DNA from: an uncultured Candidatus Peribacteria bacterium
Lineage (GTDB): Bacteria; Patescibacteriota; Gracilibacteria; Peribacterales; Peribacteraceae
Length of the DNA: 42,177 nt
Reading direction: 5' to 3'
Assembly: GCA_964592265.1 (NCBI GenBank)
Contig: CAZQCB010000001.1
Location: 1-42,177 of the forward strand
This document shows, one piece after another, positions 18,370-42,095 of this stretch (position 1 is its first letter; each line of letters opens with the position of its first letter). The notes beneath the pieces were generated by a model. That model was not told the origin of the DNA. It saw nothing but the letters and a program-made list of their open reading frames with translations, and did no database searches. The position numbers and the translations under genes are program-made.

Positions 18370-20553
18370 ATGGAGGTTGCGCACAGACACGCCCGCACAG
18401 GGGAAAAGCTCCTCTTCCTCGTTGTGGGGATTGGCATCGCTCTTTCGATCTTTCACATCTTCGCTCTCGCATTCCTTCAGGACATCGATGACGCCCCGTA
18501 CCCCATCTTCTTTAGTATGGGGAAGGCAATTCTCAACGGATTCACTCCTTACGAGGATATTTTTGAAACAAAACCTCCTGGGCTGTTCGCGCTTGCAGCA
18601 CTCTCCTTTGCACTCTTCAAGAGCCCTGTCCTTGCGAACATGCTCCAGACCATCCTCCTCTTCCTTCTCCCCACACTTTTCACCCTTTTTGCGTGGAAGA
18701 AGATGCAACATCAAGAGAAGAAGTATCGGTTCCTCGCTCTCGCACTCGCCCTTCTAGGGTCGATTGCACTCCTTCGCTACCTTCTGCCGCACCCCGGCGT
18801 CTGGTCACCGGATTTCTTCAGTGCAGTCTTCGGCATGCTGTATCTCCTCATGATTGCCAATCCAGAGAAATTGGGAAGAGGGAGAATCGCACTCGCTTCG
18901 CTCTTCCTCTTTCTCGCAATCGGCACGAAGGAACCCATATTCCTCTCGACACTCGCAGGGGCAATCGTGCTCCTCCGCACTCCGCGCGCATTCCTCAAGG
19001 GGTGGGTGCTGCCCTTCATCCTGGCAGCACTTGCGGGACTCCTCACGCTCGCGCTCTTCGGATGGCTCCATAGCTATACCTCGATCTACCTCCCCTCCAT
19101 GTTTGGGGGGTACCTCCAACGTCACACGCTCCCGATCTGGCAGAAGGGGCTCGCAATCGATCTCACTTTCGCGAATCTCACATCGCTCTCCCCCGCACTC
19201 CCGATCCTCGTCCTTGGGTCCCTCCTCTTTCTCCTCTTCAAGGACAGGAAAGACACAGTGGAGCGATGGACGGCCGCAACTTCCCTCCTCCTCATCCTTT
19301 CCCTCTTCCTCCTCCTCGCACTCACGGGCCCCCGTCTGATGTTCTATACCTCCCAGTGGGTGCTCGGGGTCCTGCTCCTCTTTCTCCTCCCCTCCCTCTA
19401 CCACGAGTGGAAGAAGCGAAAATTGCGCGCGCTCCTGCTTGCGTTCCTCCTGGCAAGCGGATCGCTCCTCCTCACCTCCTTCCAGTGGTGTCAGCGCACG
19501 TCCCCGATCTTCGCACTCTCGACAAACGTCCTCTCCTTCTTCCCCCACGGGGCCGACCTCCCCTGCCTCGGATCCTTTGGGATGCTCGGCATCATGGTGC
19601 TTCTCACTTTTGCGCTCCTCCCCTGGAAAACACTCTCCCGCGAAGGCCGAACGCTCTCCCTCGCAACCTCCCTCCTCCTCGCCATCATTCTCTTCTCGTA
19701 CCTCGGGATCCTCATCTTCTTTTTTCTCGCAACCCCCCTCCACCGTCTCTCCCCGGTTCCGGGCCTCGTGATCGTCGCAGGGTACATGGCCTACCTCGCC
19801 CGGCGCTGGAATGCTTCGCAGCGCATGGTGCTCCGGGAGGTCCTCCTCCTCTCCCTTGCGCTCTTCCTCGCGATCACTGCGATCTCACTCGGGACGGATT
19901 TCCAGAATCAGCACTACCTTGCCGCAACCCCGTTCTACGCAGCACTCCTCCTACGCTCCTTGCACATCTTCTCGCAGCACCCCCCGCACCCCTACACAAG
20001 ATACGTCCTCCCTGTCTTCGCGCTGCTTGCCGCAGTCACAACCTTCTCCTCCTACCCCTACCCCGCGCTTTCGCTGCAAAAGTACAGAGCGAACATCGCA
20101 GAGACACGACACACTCGCACTCTCGCACAGGAATCAGCCCGCAATCTCGATGCCATCCTCGATCAGTGCAACATCGATCGCTACTACACACTGAAGAATG
20201 TGAGCACAGTGAATCCCTTCGAGGGGTACACGCGTCACACGCCCGCAAACTTCTTCTACTTTGCGGGAATCGAAACGATCAATACCTATCATGATGCCCT
20301 CGCTGTCCGCGAGGCTCGCAATTTCTTTTCCTCTCAGCTCATCGTCACGGGTGATGTGCCGCCTCCCCTCACGCGACAATGGGAAAAGGATATCCAATCC
20401 TTCCTCCAGGAAGAGTTCACAGACGTTCCCTGGCCCTGCGCCGAAGGTCTCCCCACGATCCCCCATCGCGTTCTCCTCTACCGCAAAGTTCCGGGACGCG
20501 TGACGCCGCTCTCGCGGGAGATGCAGGAGTGGGTCGAGCAACACGGGGACTAA
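18370..20553 (+). CDS. GT-C fold membrane glycosyltransferase (PMT/ArnT, GT39/83-like)
   Basis: 727 aa with many hydrophobic spans. The first loop reads DIDDAPYP..ETKPPGLF. The C-terminus is soluble, about 170 aa. Confidence 0.75.
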   Translation: MEVAHRHARTGEKLLFLVVGIGIALSIFHIFALAFLQDIDDAPYPIFFSMGKAILNGFTPYEDIFETKPPGLFALAALSFALFKSPVLANMLQTILLFLLPTLFTLFAWKKMQHQEKKYRFLALALALLGSIALLRYLLPHPGVWSPDFFSAVFGMLYLLMIANPEKLGRGRIALASLFLFLAIGTKEPIFLSTLAGAIVLLRTPRAFLKGWVLPFILAALAGLLTLALFGWLHSYTSIYLPSMFGGYLQRHTLPIWQKGLAIDLTFANLTSLSPALPILVLGSLLFLLFKDRKDTVERWTAATSLLLILSLFLLLALTGPRLMFYTSQWVLGVLLLFLLPSLYHEWKKRKLRALLLAFLLASGSLLLTSFQWCQRTSPIFALSTNVLSFFPHGADLPCLGSFGMLGIMVLLTFALLPWKTLSREGRTLSLATSLLLAIILFSYLGILIFFFLATPLHRLSPVPGLVIVAGYMAYLARRWNASQRMVLREVLLLSLALFLAITAISLGTDFQNQHYLAATPFYAALLLRSLHIFSQHPPHPYTRYVLPVFALLAAVTTFSSYPYPALSLQKYRANIAETRHTRTLAQESARNLDAILDQCNIDRYYTLKNVSTVNPFEGYTRHTPANFFYFAGIETINTYHDALAVREARNFFSSQLIVTGDVPPPLTRQWEKDIQSFLQEEFTDVPWPCAEGLPTIPHRVLLYRKVPGRVTPLSREMQEWVEQHGD

Positions 20554-30404: not shown

Positions 30405-32059
30405 GGAGTAAAGGCGGGAGAGAGACTCAAGAGGAGCCATGTGTTTGAGGCTTCGAGAACAGTGAGGGGTAAGGAGTATCGGGTCATACTCCACTGGGGT
30501 TTCCCCTCCTGATTCCACAGGATGTGCGTCACTCCGTACTTTCGGAGCCAGGGGAGCGGATCACTCCGCACCCTCTCGCATGCTTCCCCGACGAGCACTC
30601 TCTCGCGCTCACGCATCTTAAGGGAATCGAGCACGGGAGTGTACTCGATGTAGAGCGAGCGATACGGATTGGGTGGGCTTCCTAAGAAGAGCTCTGAGAG
30701 ACAGAAGCGCTCCGCGAGCTCCGCATCAGAGAGGAGAAGGTGACGGGCGTGTGTCGTGTAGATAATCCCCTCATCTGTGAAGGAGGTGAGCACGCGACCG
30801 GTGTGCGCATCCGTGAGTACGACATCGCGCGTGCCATTCTCACGGAGAAGTTTGATGGGACGACGCAAGTACTGATCTTGGAAATCCTCTTCCTTGGGCA
30901 CGAAGAATCTGTACCCAGGGAGGTAATCATATGCCGCACCGGCAAGGAAGAGCACTGCTATGCCTGCAACACCCACTCGCGGCAAGAGGGGAACGCGATG
31001 GAGGAGGACATAGGCTCCCGCAACGAGGGAACCGAGGACGAGATGCGGGTAGAAATGGGAACTGAACATGAGAAGCGTCCCATGCACGATGTTCTGGTGC
31101 ATGGCGAGGAAGACTCCAAGGAGGAGGGAGAGGGTTGCAAGGTAACGCCAGTTCTGTCGCTCCTGCTTCCAGAGAGAGAGGAAGAGCCCCACTTGGAGCG
31201 CAAGGAGGATGCTCCGCATAGGGGACTCGACGGAGCGTGTGAAGAGAAACCCCGCACGGCGCGCAGTTTCCAAGTACAGCGGGTGCTGCATGAGTTCCCA
31301 AGTGTGGAGGAAGAAGGGAAGAGCAACGAAAAAAGTAACGAGGAGGACAACGAGGAACAGAGAGTGTGAAGGTGTGAAGGTGTGAAGGTCGTTCTTCAGG
31401 GGCCGCGTGATGTAGTGAAGAAGTACGGCGCTTCCCGCGACCGCCCATACGTAAGAGAAGCTCCAGAAGTAGATGTAGGGGAGCATGCCAAGGAGGAGTC
31501 CCGTGAGGAGTGCGAGAGGGAGAGACGGATGTTTCCAGAAGTGCAGGAATGCAATGAGGGCGGCAATCGCCGGAACAAAGCTCCACCCCGGATGCATGAC
31601 GCGCGAGACGACAGGGAAGAGGAGGAAGAAGTAGAGACTGGTCATGCCGAGTGCCCAAGGAGGAGAGAACTCCAATGTGCGGAAGAGGAAGTGAAAGAGG
31701 AGGAAGAGGAGAAACACAAAGAGGGGCGTAAGGATGACCGAGAGCGTGGGAGCGGGAATACCCAACCACCCAAGGAACACACCCAGGGCAATTTCGAGAC
31801 CGGCGATCTGCCCACCCTCAATCCCGGAACCGACGGGGGTGATCCCGTTGTCTGCTTCCGAAGGAAACCCCGAGAGAGCACGCTCCAGACGGCTATAGTA
31901 ATTGCCGAAGTCCTTGTCTCGAATGATGGTGAGTCCCTCGAAGGAGGGGTGGAATGTATGCAGGACGTATGGAACTGCGGCACCCAGTGCAAAAAGCAGG
32001 GCAACCCCTAGAACGGGGAAGAGGAAAGGGGTTTGGAGGCGGGGAGCAGAGGAAATCAC
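30401..32059 (-). CDS. polytopic membrane protein, paralog C (GT-C-like candidate)
   Basis: 552 aa from GTG32059. The acidic loop reads IRDKDFGNYYSRLERALSG. YFWSFSYVWAVAG, ESPMRSILLAL and AELAERFCLSELF are present. Confidence 0.7.
   Translation of the reverse strand: MISSAPRLQTPFLFPVLGVALLFALGAAVPYVLHTFHPSFEGLTIIRDKDFGNYYSRLERALSGFPSEADNGITPVGSGIEGGQIAGLEIALGVFLGWLGIPAPTLSVILTPLFVFLLFLLFHFLFRTLEFSPPWALGMTSLYFFLLFPVVSRVMHPGWSFVPAIAALIAFLHFWKHPSLPLALLTGLLLGMLPYIYFWSFSYVWAVAGSAVLLHYITRPLKNDLHTFTPSHSLFLVVLLVTFFVALPFFLHTWELMQHPLYLETARRAGFLFTRSVESPMRSILLALQVGLFLSLWKQERQNWRYLATLSLLLGVFLAMHQNIVHGTLLMFSSHFYPHLVLGSLVAGAYVLLHRVPLLPRVGVAGIAVLFLAGAAYDYLPGYRFFVPKEEDFQDQYLRRPIKLLRENGTRDVVLTDAHTGRVLTSFTDEGIIYTTHARHLLLSDAELAERFCLSELFLGSPPNPYRSLYIEYTPVLDSLKMRERERVLVGEACERVRSDPLPWLRKYGVTHILWNQEGKPQWSMTRYSLPLTVLEASNTWLLLSLSPAFTP
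31364..31387. repeat. octanucleotide tandem repeat GTGTGAAG x3
   Basis: Three perfect units read directly, plus a partial GT. They lie inside paralog C and encode DLHTFTPSH. Confidence 0.9.
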
Positions 32060-35538: not shown

Positions 35539-35583
35539 TTCCTCTGACTCCTCTCTTTCCTCTGCTTCCTCTGCATCCTCCCG
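35539..35583. repeat. nonamer tandem array, consensus TTCCTCTGC, 5 units
   Basis: The units are TTCCTCTGA CTCCTCTCT TTCCTCTGC TTCCTCTGC ATCCTCCCG. The array ends 3 nt before ATG35587 and fills the divergent intergenic region. Confidence 0.85.
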
Positions 35584-37095: not shown

Positions 37096-39330
37096 TTACA
37101 ACCCCTTCGCAATGAATTCATCCATCTTCGCAATCATGCCTTCGAGGCTGTGACACTCGGCAACGATGCGGTAGAGCTCGTCGGCATTTGTGCCCTGGAA
37201 ATGCTGAATGAACGCAGCAACGGCTTCAGGGGTATCTTCGTCCGGAGCGGAGAGTAAACCAATTGCCTCAGCGTTCTTTTTCGTCGTCACGGGGTAGCAT
37301 CCACAGGTCATTGCCTCAAGCATCGTCTTATCAATGGTCTCACTGGCCATATTGAGAATGAACCGGTGCTGCGGATAGATCTCCTTCAACTGCTCCATGG
37401 GCACCGTGCCGTGGAAGGTGACGCGGGATTCAAGACCCAAGCTCGAAACGAGCTGCCGAAGCTCTGCGACATAATCCGGTTCCGCTGCGATACCGTAGAT
37501 CACCATCGTATATATCTCCGGAAGAAGTTTGAGCGCTCTCAAACTGATTTCCACACGCTTGCTTCGGGATAATCGGTGCACGACGAGAAGTTCATGTGGA
37601 TTTCCTGTGACACTCGGTCGCTTCTTCCAGAAATCGAGGTCAATGCCATGACCAGTTACAATCTTCTTCGGTGATCCCTCATACTGAGGCAAGCTCTGTG
37701 CAGTCGCACAGAAAAAGCGTTTCCCAAAGAGGCCGAAGAGGAAGACTCCGAGCTGCATCTTGTAGTGCGTGTACCAGAGGTAGACCGGAATGCCTTTGAG
37801 GAGCCACCACCAAAACCCAAGCGTATACCACACGGGAGACATATGGATGAAGACGCGGTCGTATTGGAGGGAGAAAATATATTTGTAGAAGGACAGAATT
37901 TGCCGGATCTTGCCGAATCTGCGTTCCTTTCCCATGGAGAAAACCTGTCGCACGTCACTCCGTGACGTGTGCTGCATGTCGCGGAGCGACATGCGACTAT
38001 TCTCCAGGCAGAGCACCTGAACGGTATATCCCTTCCTCTCAAAAGCCCTTACCCAGAGCTCGACGAACGCATCCTGTGTGTGCATCTTTTGGGTGATGAA
38101 GAGCAATGAAAGTTTCTTCGGAGAGGAAAGATTTTTCAGGAACTCTGCGTATTTCTGCACAGCTTCACCGGGAGCGAAACGGGAGAGGACTTCTTTTCTT
38201 GCACGCTCCCCCATTGCCCTCGTGGAAGAAAAATCACCAAGGAGCACCTGCAATTTCTCTGAAAGATTTTTTGCTGAACCATCCGTGAACTTCACAAGCT
38301 CACCATCCTCCCCAAACTGTGGCATGATCCCCACTCTCGTCGTGACCACGGGCATCCCGAGCGCCATCGCTTCGATGGCGACACGGGGATTCCCTTCACT
38401 TCGGGAATTCACAAGGAAAATTTTCCCTCGCTGCATTTCCCGGTACACGTCACGTTGCTCCGGAAGCCATCCTGCGAATGTCACACGATCATCGATCCCG
38501 AGAGATCTTGCCTTGTCCTCCAGACGTGCTCGTTCTGGCCCATCACCGATGAGAAGGAGTGAAACCCCCTTCAAAGATGAAATAGCCTGGAGTACCTCAA
38601 AAAGCCCTTTATTGGCCGTAAGACGCGCGCAAGCTACAACGTCGTACTCCTCCCTTATGGAGGGGCCTGGCATGAGCGCAGAGGCATCCAGGTAGAGGGA
38701 AGGCACAATCTCGACTTTCGCTTGCGGGATTCCCCACTGCATCAGTTTCTCCTCTACTTCATTATTCACGGTTCGCACCTTGGCGGCAGCCCGCACCGTT
38801 GCTTTGAAAAAAAATGGCCAGTGATACATCCACCGTCCAATGCGTTCCTGTAAAGACGCAGCCGTGGGATATCCCACGATGTGATGTACCTCAACTCCAT
38901 AGGGAGTGCGAGTCACACGATGCAACCACCGCGCACCAATCCCGTTATAAAACGGCGGGTAGTCGTGAACTGTCATCACCCAGTCCGGCATCTTCTTGCT
39001 TTTCAAAAGTTCTTTCCCTTTCTTGAGAATGAAGAAAGGTTGGTACCACAGCCTGTGAGGAGAAGAGTGGAAGAAAACATTCGGCAAATCCGAAATCCGA
39101 AATCCGAAATCCGAAACAAATTCGAAATTCGAATTTCGTGCTTCGTGCTTGTTTCGAATTTCGTGCGGAGCTTGTCCTGAGCCTTGTCGAAGGGTGCTTC
39201 GGATTTCTACTCTTGGGCAGATAATTTCGATTCTCTCAAAATGTTTCGAAAGTTCTTCCAAGGTGTAATAGAAAGCACCCTTCTTGCCGGAAGAGACTGA
39301 TCTGTCGCCGGAAATCATCAGAAGATTCAT
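37096..39330 (-). CDS. two-module GT4 glycosyltransferase fusion
   Basis: 744 aa. Module 1 contains FLVNSRSEGNPRVAIEAMALGMPVVTT. Module 2 contains ILNMASETIDKTMLEAMTCGCYPVTT. ATGA overlap with the upstream gene. Confidence 0.8.
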   Translation of the reverse strand: MNLLMISGDRSVSSGKKGAFYYTLEELSKHFERIEIICPRVEIRSTLRQGSGQAPHEIRNKHEARNSNFEFVSDFGFRISDLPNVFFHSSPHRLWYQPFFILKKGKELLKSKKMPDWVMTVHDYPPFYNGIGARWLHRVTRTPYGVEVHHIVGYPTAASLQERIGRWMYHWPFFFKATVRAAAKVRTVNNEVEEKLMQWGIPQAKVEIVPSLYLDASALMPGPSIREEYDVVACARLTANKGLFEVLQAISSLKGVSLLLIGDGPERARLEDKARSLGIDDRVTFAGWLPEQRDVYREMQRGKIFLVNSRSEGNPRVAIEAMALGMPVVTTRVGIMPQFGEDGELVKFTDGSAKNLSEKLQVLLGDFSSTRAMGERARKEVLSRFAPGEAVQKYAEFLKNLSSPKKLSLLFITQKMHTQDAFVELWVRAFERKGYTVQVLCLENSRMSLRDMQHTSRSDVRQVFSMGKERRFGKIRQILSFYKYIFSLQYDRVFIHMSPVWYTLGFWWWLLKGIPVYLWYTHYKMQLGVFLFGLFGKRFFCATAQSLPQYEGSPKKIVTGHGIDLDFWKKRPSVTGNPHELLVVHRLSRSKRVEISLRALKLLPEIYTMVIYGIAAEPDYVAELRQLVSSLGLESRVTFHGTVPMEQLKEIYPQHRFILNMASETIDKTMLEAMTCGCYPVTTKKNAEAIGLLSAPDEDTPEAVAAFIQHFQGTNADELYRIVAECHSLEGMIAKMDEFIAKGL
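39086..39207. repeat. heptamer-periodic nested-palindrome element (AAATCCG x4 etc.), in-frame in CDS
   Basis: Read directly. There are four perfect heptamers at 39086-39113 and a 16-nt palindrome at 39123-39138. A 12/13 stem pairs 39105-39117 with 39151-39163. TTCGGATTTC at 39198-39207 pairs with the heptamer units. Confidence 0.9.
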
Positions 39331-40502
39331 CGTGTGCGCGAGAGAGTGAGAAATTCTTCCGCAACATCGTTCCAGGTTCGCTTTGGAGGAGGCGAAGCAG
39401 AGGCTGTAGCATACATATCGTATTCTTTCTCTACTTCTTCAATTGCAGCTACGATCTCTTGAACAGTCAAAAGATCACGGAGAATCATTCCTTGAGAAAG
39501 GGCGCTGCTTAAGCCCGTCTCCTTCGTAAGGAGCACAGGGAGACCCGCTGCACGCGCTTCAAGCGCTACATTAGGGCTCATTTCGGTAACGGAAGGGAGA
39601 ACCAGGAGATCGTGCTCCGCGAACACTTCCTGTTTTTCTTCACCGTGCGCCGGGGGGTAGAATGTCACAATGTTCTGCAACTGAAGTTTTGCCACAAGAA
39701 AACGTAAGGAGCTCTCCACAGGTCCCTCACCGACAAAGGTCAGCGTTGCCCTTCCATGGTCATTCTTCAGAGCGACAACAAACGTGAGCAAATTTTTGAA
39801 TCCCACGAACCTCCCCATGAAAAGAAGGCGAAATGGATCGTGCTTCTTATGTTCTTCAGCCTTACGTACCAATTCACTAGTGAATTGGTATATTTGTTCT
39901 GGTAGGGCATTCTCAATCACAGAATGTTTCGGGAGATCCTTGTAATGCTTTTCATAGAGCTTTTCTTGAAACCGTGTAGAAAAGACGATGTGATCGAACG
40001 TACGAAGCATCAATCGCGAAACGAAAAACGAAAAACGAAAAACGAGCGAACGTTCTTCATACCATTCTCTCAAGCTCTTCATTCCCCCTCTATCCGTATA
40101 CCGCTCCCAGAAGAAATCCCCGCCAAGCCGAAGCAGCAGCTTCGGCTTGCCCCGAGCGAAGCCGAGGGGCGAGCACATGCGCCAGAGCATAATCGGCACG
40201 CCACAACTTACCGAGGAGAAAGCAACAATGACATCTGCATCGACCGCATGTTGTTTGAGCGCCTTTGCATACCTCCACCATCGAAGTAGCGGCCCACCCA
40301 ACTTTGCCACATGAATCACGGGCCAATCTTCTTTGGAAATTGGAAATTGGAATTTGGGATTTGGGATTTGGTGCTTCGGCACATACGTCACCACCTTCAC
40401 CTCATTCCCCTTCTTCGTAAATTCCTCCGCAAGTGCCTGCACATAAGTCGCGGGACCGCCAATATCAGGTGGATAGATGCCTGTAGCGAGGACGATCTTC
40501 AT
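39327..40502 (-). CDS. GT4 family glycosyltransferase
   Basis: 391 aa. MKIVLATGIYPPDIGGPATY and LVLPSVTEMSPNVALEARAAGLPVLLT are present. Confidence 0.85.
   Translation of the reverse strand: MKIVLATGIYPPDIGGPATYVQALAEEFTKKGNEVKVVTYVPKHQIPNPKFQFPISKEDWPVIHVAKLGGPLLRWWRYAKALKQHAVDADVIVAFSSVSCGVPIMLWRMCSPLGFARGKPKLLLRLGGDFFWERYTDRGGMKSLREWYEERSLVFRFSFFVSRLMLRTFDHIVFSTRFQEKLYEKHYKDLPKHSVIENALPEQIYQFTSELVRKAEEHKKHDPFRLLFMGRFVGFKNLLTFVVALKNDHGRATLTFVGEGPVESSLRFLVAKLQLQNIVTFYPPAHGEEKQEVFAEHDLLVLPSVTEMSPNVALEARAAGLPVLLTKETGLSSALSQGMILRDLLTVQEIVAAIEEVEKEYDMYATASASPPPKRTWNDVAEEFLTLSRTR
39867..39890. repeat. 24-nt perfect palindrome TACCAATTCACTAGTGAATTGGTA, copy 2
   Basis: Identical to 15195-15218. 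Here it is read in-frame as YQFTSELV inside the GT4 gene. Confidence 0.95.
40017..40049. repeat. heptamer tandem repeat CGAAAAA x3 with degenerate flanks
   Basis: The sequence reads CGAAA CGAAAAA CGAAAAA CGAAAAA CGAGCGA. It encodes RSLVFRFSFFVS on the minus strand. Confidence 0.9.
40122..40151. repeat. GC-rich hairpin (11/12-bp stem, 6-nt loop) inside CDS
   Basis: The sequence reads GCCAAGCCGAAG-cagcag-CTTCGGCTTGCC. Confidence 0.8.
40336..40377. repeat. heptamer array GAAATTG x2, GAATTTG, GGATTTG x2, GTGCTTC
   Basis: Read directly. It follows the same ordered unit series as 39124-39151 and ends in GGTGCTTCGG, as at 39195-39202. It encodes KHQIPNPKFQFPIS. Confidence 0.9.
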
Positions 40503-42016: not shown

Positions 42017-42029
42017 GTCCCTGCGAAGA

Positions 42030-42090
42030 GAATTAAGAATCAAGAATTACGAATTAAGGGTCCTAATTCTGAATTCCTAATTCCTACTTC
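42030..42090. promoter_or_regulatory. 4+4 inverted heptamer array (GAATTNN x4, GGGTC, NNAATTC x4)
   Basis: The array reads GAATTAA GAATCAA GAATTAC GAATTAA gggtc CTAATTC TGAATTC CTAATTC CTACTTC. 21 of 28 arm positions are complementary. It sits between the two divergent -10 boxes. Confidence 0.8.
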
Positions 42091-42095
42091 CCCTC

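Follow-up and report, generated by a model that had tools for sequence, protein, structure and literature searches.

Genes and repeat elements at the locus

We analyzed a stretch of 42,177 nt from an uncultured Candidatus Peribacteria bacterium (GenBank assembly GCA_964592265.1, contig CAZQCB010000001.1, positions 1 to 42,177; hereafter the window), in which short tandem arrays of 7-nt units, here called heptamer arrays, lie inside genes for GT4 glycosyltransferases. Peribacteria are episymbiotic bacteria and part of the candidate phyla radiation (CPR). The last 3 kb of the window contain two neighboring minus-strand GT4 genes, followed by a small open reading frame (ORF), an rmlB-like gene and the start of an rmlA-like gene at the edge. 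The coding sequence (CDS) at 39327-40502 on the minus strand encodes a GT4 glycosyltransferase of 391 aa with the Pfam domains Glycos_transf_1 and Glyco_transf_4. An exact look-up of this protein returned no record, and more than 1000 homologs were found, the majority of them in Peribacteria and Peregrinibacteria. Its AlphaFold2 model had a mean predicted local distance difference test score (pLDDT) of 86.6 and matched the structures of MshA/BshA, corresponding to an ordinary GT4 fold. The ORF is unbroken through all of its repeats, as an initial annotation made from the sequence had claimed, and aligns end to end with its orthologs.

For the ortholog comparison, 30 orthologs were aligned first and then 66 full-length orthologs out of 80 Peribacteria loci, and a codon alignment was built with L081, L082 and L083, the three closest relatives with fetched DNA. 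Four variable sites were located in the gene by these alignments (sites 1-4), and the stretches of low confidence in the model, residues 41-60, 111-120 and 201-220, correspond to sites 1, 2 and 4. The features discussed below are collected in Table 1.

Table 1. Repeat features and the second host gene in the final part of the window
Feature	Position	Strand	Basis and remarks
Site-1 heptamer array	40336..40378	-	TRF, lag-7 scan; loop behind strand beta-2, after the VVTY strand
Site-2 GC-rich hairpin element	40121..40172	-	Encodes SPLGFARGKPKLLLRLGG; located before KPKxxLRLGG; fold, codon alignment, family scan
Site-3 heptamer array	40015..40049	-	Plus strand CGCGAAA (CGAAAAA)x3 CGAGCGA; coding strand (TTTTTCG)n; five units
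Site-4 perfect 24-nt palindrome	39867..39890	-	TACCAATTCACT/AGTGAATTGGTA; fold z = -5.3
Composite heptamer block	39082..39207	-	In the 744-aa GT4 gene; TRF, lag-7 scan, fold z = -3.5
Two-module GT4 CDS, 744 aa	37096..39330	-	ORF, Pfam, comparison with syntenic genes; carries the composite block
Heptamer arrays (AGAATTA)n / (CTAATTC)n forming an inverted pair	42027..42093	.	Intergenic; separates the divergent rmlB-like gene from the start of the rmlA-like gene

Heptamer arrays inside the 391-aa gene

Scanning the whole window at lag 7 detected arrays solely at 39081-39151, 40010-40051, 40329-40379 and 42027-42093, with almost none at other periods. Three phased units of the pattern GAAWWNN occurred five times, all in the final 3 kb, against an expectation of 0.01 from 100 dinucleotide shuffles, so that the shuffled control proposed with the initial annotation did not reduce the pattern to background. 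The accompanying statement that all arrays run in plus-strand orientation did not hold, since two of the five matches lie on the minus strand; a self-complementary core, CGAA/TTCG, also leaves the family without a single orientation. Other tandem repeats of the window, at 31364-31389, 35539-35580 and 19281-19317, have periods of 8 (GTGTGAAG x3.2, perfect), 9 and 18.

The array at site 1 consists, on the plus strand, of GAAATTG x2, GAATTTG, GGATTTG x2 and GTGCTTCG, and is translated as HQIPNPKFQFPIS. Its six phased heptamers, ending in GTGCTTC and coding for KHQIPNPKFQFPIS, were found exactly where they had first been reported (40336-40377), and Tandem Repeats Finder (TRF) called a period of 7 at 40332-40371 with 5.7 copies and 90% matches. 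The corresponding loop region of the protein is 31 aa long, compared with an ortholog median of 23.5, and exceeds those of L081 and L082 by 5-6 codons in the codon alignment; residues 41-60 have a pLDDT of <60.

At site 3, CGAAAAA is repeated three times at 40022-40042, as first noted, with degenerate units on the flanks, and the coding (minus) strand reads SLVFRFSFFVSR; TRF called 3.9 copies at 40019-40045 with 100% matches. The segment, located between WY and FDH, is 24 aa long against a 20-aa baseline, a length near that of the closest relatives, and residues 153-166 were modeled as a confident helix. Heptamer arrays occupy this position in L083, with (AGTTGCA)x3.5, in L081, with a degenerate TCGTTNT x4 array where the window has (TCGTTTT)x3.9, and in nine of the 66 orthologs overall. 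At site 1, arrays are present in 17/66 orthologs, and site 4 has one in 3/66. In several orthologs the array-bearing loop is of normal length, so that there the array replaces the loop and adds nothing to it.

These comparisons qualify the description of the repeats as having hit the gene in the sense of fresh insertions. Sites 1, 2 and 4 are indeed longer by 5-10 codons than in L081/L082/L083 and have low pLDDT, the placement expected of elements like the Rickettsia palindromic elements (RPEs), while at site 3 the array replaces part of a helix-coding segment with no insertion, and L081 has related arrays at both sites 1 and 3. The arrays of the 391-aa gene are thus probably inherited within the clade and not new, and probably date back to the ancestor that the window organism shares with L081. 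Neither of the two arrays inside the CDS has an inverted partner, which 56% of intergenic arrays do.

Kinship of the arrays in the window

The composite block in the 744-aa gene contains (AAATCCG)x4, AAATTCG x2, AATTTCG, TGCTTCG x2, a 14-nt duplicate, a copy of a GC-rich element described below and a closing TGCTTCGGATTTC. TRF called period 7 at 39086-39150, and likewise at 42029-42091 for the intergenic pair. The ordered unit series GAAATTC, GAATTTC, GTGCTTC and GTGCTTG, which had been read at 39124-39151, is present as claimed. When a 14-nt gap is allowed, 39118-39145 (AAATTCG AAATTCG AATTTCG TGCTTCG) matches 40337-40378 (AAATTGG AAATTGG AATTTGG [GATTTGG x2] TGCTTCG) at 25/28 positions, and units one to three all differ by the same C-to-G change. 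The 10-mer GGTGCTTCGG reported to connect the two segments is real, its first copy lying 2 nt from where it had been placed (39193-39202 and 40370-40379), and it is weaker evidence against chance than was assumed, because GTGCTTCG is over-represented throughout the window. This octamer occurs 10 times against 1.9 expected, with 0/100 shuffles reaching 10, and seven of the ten occurrences are outside the repeat region and spread over the first 34 kb.

The same units recur, several together, in at least six further Peribacteria genomes. TGCTTCG, AATTTCG, TGTTTCG, GATTTCG and TTTTTCG were found together in arrays of L001, L015, L026, L036 and L081, and (CGAAAAA)3 is the family unit TTTTTCG read from the opposite strand. 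The motif TTCGTGCTTCG, which arrays of L001, L015, L026, L036 and the window have in common, had 9 hits (0.65 expected) and GTGCTTCGGATTT, with at most one mismatch, had 8 (1.6 expected); the latter is also present in an intergenic array of L019, which has AATTTGGGATTT.GTGCTTCG in common with the site-1 array. Window positions 39080-39118 match the site-1 array of L081, the closest array-bearing ortholog with DNA at hand, at 37/39 positions, where the L081 counterpart is on the coding strand and the window copy is antisense and within a paralogous gene. In other Peribacteria genomes, arrays with the units of the window mostly stand between genes as inverted pairs, at a distance of 15-115 nt upstream of a gene, one of them (L015) directly upstream of the ortholog of the 744-aa gene. 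Metagenomes were scanned at the DNA level, by a flank-plus-gap approach, for the array at 39086, with no match. Taken together, unit content and unit order support the assignment of the heptamer arrays in both GT4 genes and the intergenic pair to one NNNTTCG/CGAANNN family. The view that one repeat family strikes the two neighboring genes stands for these arrays, in units and order, and fails for the GC-rich hairpin and the palindrome; the way in which the family spreads is inferred.

In the 744-aa protein, two GT4-type modules seem to have been fused. Its N-terminal part exists as a separate gene of 370-400 aa (MKLLMISGDRS...) at other loci, and the part from around residue 400 (LSLLFITQKMH...) resembles stand-alone genes such as that at 12158-13213 in L080. 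The 744-aa gene has the longest array loop, 43 aa, in a comparison with 38 syntenic neighbor genes where it measures ~10-25 aa, and arrays in the first loop were found in syntenic orthologs of several species. The inverted pair fills the divergent rmlB-like/rmlA-like intergenic region, placing it in the presumed promoter or 5' untranslated region, and represents the typical intergenic form. It folds weakly as DNA (z = -1.4).

Period-7 arrays across Peribacteria

The survey covered 80 Peribacteria loci from different species, 1.31 Mb in total, each centered on one GT4 ortholog. An array was called at >=18/21 lag-p matches. By this threshold the loci contain 108 arrays of period 7, compared with 8 of period 6, 23 of period 8 and 11 of period 9; block shuffles of the 1.3 Mb gave zero arrays. 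A smaller excess of period-8 arrays was seen across the loci. With a slightly lower threshold, 151 arrays were obtained, 97 of them within called genes, and at least one array was present in 58/81 sources. Heptamer arrays are not peculiar to the window; they are a general, lineage-wide feature of Peribacteria DNA, and each genome has its own unit families. Unit types vary by genome (AAAGTGG, ACGAGCT, AATTGAC, GTCACTG, AGTTGCA and others), and several coexist in a genome while being related to each other. A palindromic core common to all units was considered and rejected, as it is true of the TTCGAA, TTGCAA and CAATTG types and not of AAAGTGG or AACCGAC. An Rfam scan gave two chance-level matches, far below the gathering score.

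Arrays typically comprise ~3-5 units and 25-45 nt. Perfect runs are mostly of 2.5-4.9 copies and seldom more (median 2.9, coding maximum 5.6). Rare long intergenic arrays of 10-13 units occur at L050 847-935, L008 11241-11314 and L060 20379-20463, the last of which sits between two divergent GT4-like genes. Higher-order periods of 14 and 21 nt were seen in L069, L008 and L060, and neighboring identical variant units in the window array itself (GAAATTG x2 ... GGATTTG x2). Units differ by 2.56 mismatches within a locus and 3.05 between loci (permutation p < 0.0005). Arrays located at separate sites of a genome have units and terminal variants in common, and in some cases (L016, L009, L034, L041) they are told apart by a single substitution found in all units; in L016, GTCACTG arrays with common ends occupy three sites, and similar multi-site copies exist in L066, L069 and L022. 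Such a pattern agrees with copying from site to site and later homogenization inside each array. Intergenic arrays were found between tandem, divergent and convergent genes, and an inverted copy lies within 150 nt of 56% of the intergenic arrays, compared with 16% for coding arrays and 1% for controls.

Concentration in GT4 genes

With genes in the 80 loci delimited by crude ORF calls, and GT4-like ones recognized by an iterated GT4 profile, the arrays numbered 2.22 per 10 kb in GT4-like genes, 0.14 in all other coding DNA and 4.8-5.5 in intergenic DNA, making GT4-like genes ~16 times denser in arrays than other genes. Carriers were 65/341 GT4-like genes and 12/965 others (odds ratio 18.7), and with the orthologs of the query left out 42 of 275 GT4-like genes still carried an array (odds ratio 14). 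A Pfam check of the first-pass 'other' hosts identified eight as really GT4 and one as GT2, and in several remaining non-GT4 hosts the array lies within a doubtful N-terminal extension. Within genes, the arrays are almost confined to variable segments of GT4 glycosyltransferases. Intergenic arrays showed no clustering next to glycosyltransferase genes in the same loci (4.8 vs 5.5 per 10 kb). Among the few intragenic arrays outside glycosyltransferases are (GTGATGA)n repeats in class-V aminotransferase (cysteine desulfurase-like) genes of L062 (548-587) and L066 (1132-1167), apparently at the same internal position.

The encoded peptides are hydrophobic and basic at site 3 (FRFSFFVSR, CRLQVAGWLL, WLLVISYWLL) and hydrophilic at site 1 (VESGKWK, DRGQRTE). 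Spotting arrays from the protein by 7-residue periodicity was tried and failed, because four units give only ~9 residues.

GC-rich hairpin and palindromes at the other variable sites

The GC-rich hairpin of site 2, found within 2 nt of where it was first reported, is formed at 40124-40149 by the perfectly paired 11-nt arms CAAGCCGAAGC/GCTTCGGCTTG around a spacer of 4 nt, and the segment 40110-40175 folds with an energy of -18.9 kcal/mol (z = -4.1). It forms an 8-codon insertion that L081 and L082 do not have. Between the window and L083, 46 nt are identical at site 2, with flanking codons that differ at many synonymous positions. The hairpin belongs to a dispersed GC-rich element of ~24 nt, roughly CCYTCGNCNNSGCTCRGGRCARGC, with 21 copies in the loci. 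A second window copy lies at 39161-39192 inside the heptamer block, and others occur in L004, L009, L015, L020, L025, L029, L056, L061, L067, L074 and L083, read as FDKAQG, LGFARG or LRQGSGQA depending on the frame. In L083, a tyrosine recombinase (Phage_integrase) gene at 83-847 ends exactly at the start of the GT4 ortholog, in which an (AGTTGCA)n array accompanies the GC hairpin.

The 24-nt palindrome of site 4, which is perfect and lies where it was first reported, follows ENALP in the interdomain linker, within a 7-10-codon insertion (YQFTSELV), and residues 201-210 have a pLDDT of 58. Perfect palindromes of 24-36 nt were also observed in GT4 CDSs of L001 (10457-10480, 6367-6398), L017 (3713-3742), L024 (2199-2234), L062 (15513-15536) and L071 (12317-12340), the window palindrome and that at L001 10457 having an ACTAGT center in common. 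Perfect palindromes of 22-36 nt are both coding and noncoding in the loci, with no marked preference for GT4; per 10 kb they number 0.44 in GT4 genes, compared with 0.29 in the rest of the coding DNA and ~5 in noncoding DNA. The GC hairpin represents a dispersed family of its own and the palindrome a third kind of sequence, neither of them belonging to the heptamer family.

Array length and reading frame among orthologs and strains

Frameshifted alleles were absent from the 80 orthologs, each of which gave a single one-frame tblastn high-scoring segment pair. L084 and L085, two lake samples of one strain from the Joint Genome Institute (JGI), are 99.99% identical, with one single-nucleotide polymorphism in 12.4 kb and no change in array length, including an intergenic array of 12 units. 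Within 90% protein clusters seen on at least 19 contigs, there were no indels at the arrays. These comparisons rest on consensus assemblies, which would miss switching at low frequency. Given the lack of frameshifted alleles and of length differences between strains, an on/off switch is unlikely.

Origin of the arrays

We propose, with a probability of about 0.6, that the arrays constitute one dispersed family of short repeats, made of tandem 7-nt units with a TTCG/CGAA core, which slippage keeps uniform and which is tolerated in frame in GT4 genes. An array or array seed would first be copied to a new place, by template switching, by short-patch recombination between arrays or by a trans-acting enzyme. 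Slippage in replication would then duplicate and delete units, as the sequence patterns suggest, giving uniform arrays and blocks of identical variants, and point mutation would erode the arrays. Those surviving within genes would be the copies that fell in permissive GT4 segments, kept the frame by their length and contained no stop codon, and they would be read as peptides of 7-residue period, a translation presumed from position, frame and model confidence. Heptamer arrays may accordingly act as raw material for changes in loop length and sequence and not as on/off switches, with the GC-rich hairpin and the 24-nt palindrome being separate small elements at other variable sites.

Several points weigh against this proposal. 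The copying step was not observed, and target-site duplications or defined termini are not callable on such repeats. The 16-fold GT4 excess is greater than loop tolerance obviously predicts, and by a rough estimate array density per GT4 loop base is above the intergenic density. Some arrays are preserved across species far more closely than the genes around them; between L066 and L076, an array is identical at 29/29 bases in genes that are 68% identical, which suggests constraint or recent spread and is left without explanation by a purely neutral filler. Site 3 is a confident alpha-helix and no loop. Perfect runs end near 5 copies, in intergenic DNA too, where simple slippage growth predicts otherwise. 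The gene calls in the loci are crude ORF calls, and the 80 loci sample the surroundings of one GT4 ortholog and not whole genomes.

An alternative is that the arrays are miniature mobile elements of the type of miniature transposable elements with inverted repeats (MITEs) or of doublets of repetitive extragenic palindromic (REP) sequences (REPINs), mobilized by an enzyme encoded elsewhere and inserted in frame like the RPEs. Near-identical copies at unrelated sites were indeed found (L016; the four related window sites within 3 kb), and within one genome identical units and end variants recur in either orientation, at sites that are unrelated to each other. The motif set is kept in at least six genomes, the inverted doublets of intergenic arrays resemble REPINs, a 126-nt palindromic block lies in frame within the 744-aa gene, and in-frame insertion has a precedent in the RPEs (PMC10969869). 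On the other hand, terminal inverted repeats and target duplications are not definable, the arrays are only 25-45 nt long with continuously varying units, and at the same orthologous loop the unit differs between species, as fits turnover in place. No transposase or gene for a REP-associated tyrosine transposase (RAYT) was noticed beside the arrays, in loci that were not systematically searched for one. We regard a mobile element as unlikely.

A further possibility is an active heptamer-specific process of array making or copying (repeat addition, template switching or a mobilizing enzyme) that would preferentially remodel GT4 variable segments and 5' regions, and so diversify or rarely switch surface-glycan enzymes. 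Such a process has a rather low probability in our assessment.

A third possibility, that the arrays are contingency loci, in which hypermutable heptamer tracts gain and lose units, shift the frame and phase-vary surface-glycan glycosyltransferases, is suggested by a unit length not divisible by 3, by the position of site 1 ~40-60 codons into the gene and by further arrays in promoter and 5' regions. The contingency loci of Neisseria and Campylobacter have the same glycosyltransferase-weighted distribution as those of Haemophilus. The near restriction of coding arrays to glycosyltransferases is the classic distribution in Haemophilus (PMC2651432). Heptamer tracts are reported to phase-vary hmw of H. 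influenzae. However, none of the 80 orthologs is frameshifted despite the ~29 arrays in them, tract length is constant between the two samples of one strain, the 12-unit tract included, and within 90% clusters, the tracts are short in their perfect copy number, and the site-1 array of the window is degenerate. The contingency reading is accordingly improbable.

Selection on the protein, with the DNA period as a by-product of useful peptides of 7-residue period such as an amphipathic membrane-binding helix or flexible loops on the acceptor side, agrees with the fit of the peptides to their sites (hydrophobic and basic in the predicted site-3 helix, hydrophilic at site 1) and with the preservation of some arrays between species. 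It is contradicted by the identity of synonymous positions among units, by the plentiful occurrence of similar arrays on both strands of noncoding DNA and by the use of a single array family in various frames and orientations. These three observations indicate a process at the DNA level in which peptide selection is only a filter, and we consider it very improbable as the origin of the arrays. Chance, compositional background or assembly artefact, for which only the AT-rich and near-palindromic character of the units speaks, has a negligible probability given the shuffles (0.01 expected in the window and none in 1.3 Mb), the occurrence of arrays in dozens of independent assemblies, at orthologous sites too, and the exact agreement of two independent assemblies of one strain.

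Heptamer excess in bacteria has long been noted with no mechanism or known consequence, and in Peribacteria such repeats stand inside conserved enzyme genes, at the same structural sites in many species, where they are presumably translated. The 16-fold preference for one enzyme family offers a testable case of very short repeats making or replacing protein segments, and touches on the question of how uncultured bacteria with small genomes vary the machinery that builds their glycans. In annotation, the arrays account for unusual low-complexity peptides and for the differing lengths of GT4 proteins from Peribacteria. Should they prove to be actively generated or phase-variable, they would to our knowledge be the first contingency-type or repeat-seeding system in the group.

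Comparison with known systems

Our literature searches returned no account of translated heptamer arrays centered on one enzyme family in a CPR lineage, and the Peribacter genome paper makes no mention of heptamer arrays. Mrazek et al. 2007 reportedly described an excess of heptamer simple sequence repeats (SSRs). In several bacteria such SSRs are over-represented, they form inverted pairs in Xanthomonas, and a hypothesis of polymerase slippage has been put forward (PMC4692102). The short tandemly repeated repetitive sequences (STRRs) of cyanobacteria (Mazel et al. 1990) and the GGGAATC and GGGGAYT repeats of Xanthomonas and Nostoc (PMC4692102) resemble the Peribacteria arrays in their 7-nt unit and period-7 excess, in lineage- or genome-specific units, in intergenic inverted pairs and in length and sequence differences between related species. 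The Peribacteria arrays likewise consist of head-to-tail 7-nt units in excess over other periods and over shuffles. The known cases are mainly or wholly intergenic and use fixed G-rich units, one or a few in number; in Peribacteria the unit types are numerous, the arrays are short, and a large share of them falls within coding sequences, where they are presumably translated.

The contingency loci of Haemophilus, Neisseria and Campylobacter (PMC2651432) are alike in their non-triplet units and their location, which is in promoters or, within glycosyltransferase ORFs, in the 5' part, and differ in that the Peribacteria arrays showed no length polymorphism or OFF alleles in consensus assemblies and are short, often degenerate and restricted to peptide-tolerant spots. 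REP/REPIN doublets (PMC3116915) are similarly short, dispersed, organized in within-genome families and present as inverted doublets capable of forming hairpins. They are, however, fixed imperfect palindromes of ~20-35 nt, extragenic and RAYT-dependent, whereas the arms of the Peribacteria arrays are tandem heptamers, with no RAYT noticed in these loci, which were not systematically searched.

Repeats within the genes of Borgs are said to have unit lengths divisible by three and many copies. Borg repeats, as reported (PMC9879509), share with the Peribacteria arrays that they are pervasive, fast-evolving, perfect tandem repeats in intergenic regions and ORFs that give rise to new low-complexity or disordered segments. 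The Peribacteria arrays differ in their 7-nt unit and a copy number near 4, and owing to the 7-nt unit each array is read in all three frames.

Small palindromic repeats have been found inserted in frame into conserved genes of Rickettsia (PMC10969869). These RPEs (Ogata et al. 2000; PMC10969869) are, like the Peribacteria elements, short dispersed repeats capable of forming hairpins in a small genome, which occupy tolerant positions of enzymes in frame and leave the ORF unbroken. The RPEs are conserved, ~100-150 bp long and divided into ten families in many unrelated genes, in contrast to the heptamer arrays of 25-45 nt with variable units, whose genic copies are almost only in GT4 genes; instead of a conserved element of ~100-150 bp with a conserved peptide, we found units, frames and peptides that vary. 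The RPE parallel is closest for the 126-nt block at 39082-39207.

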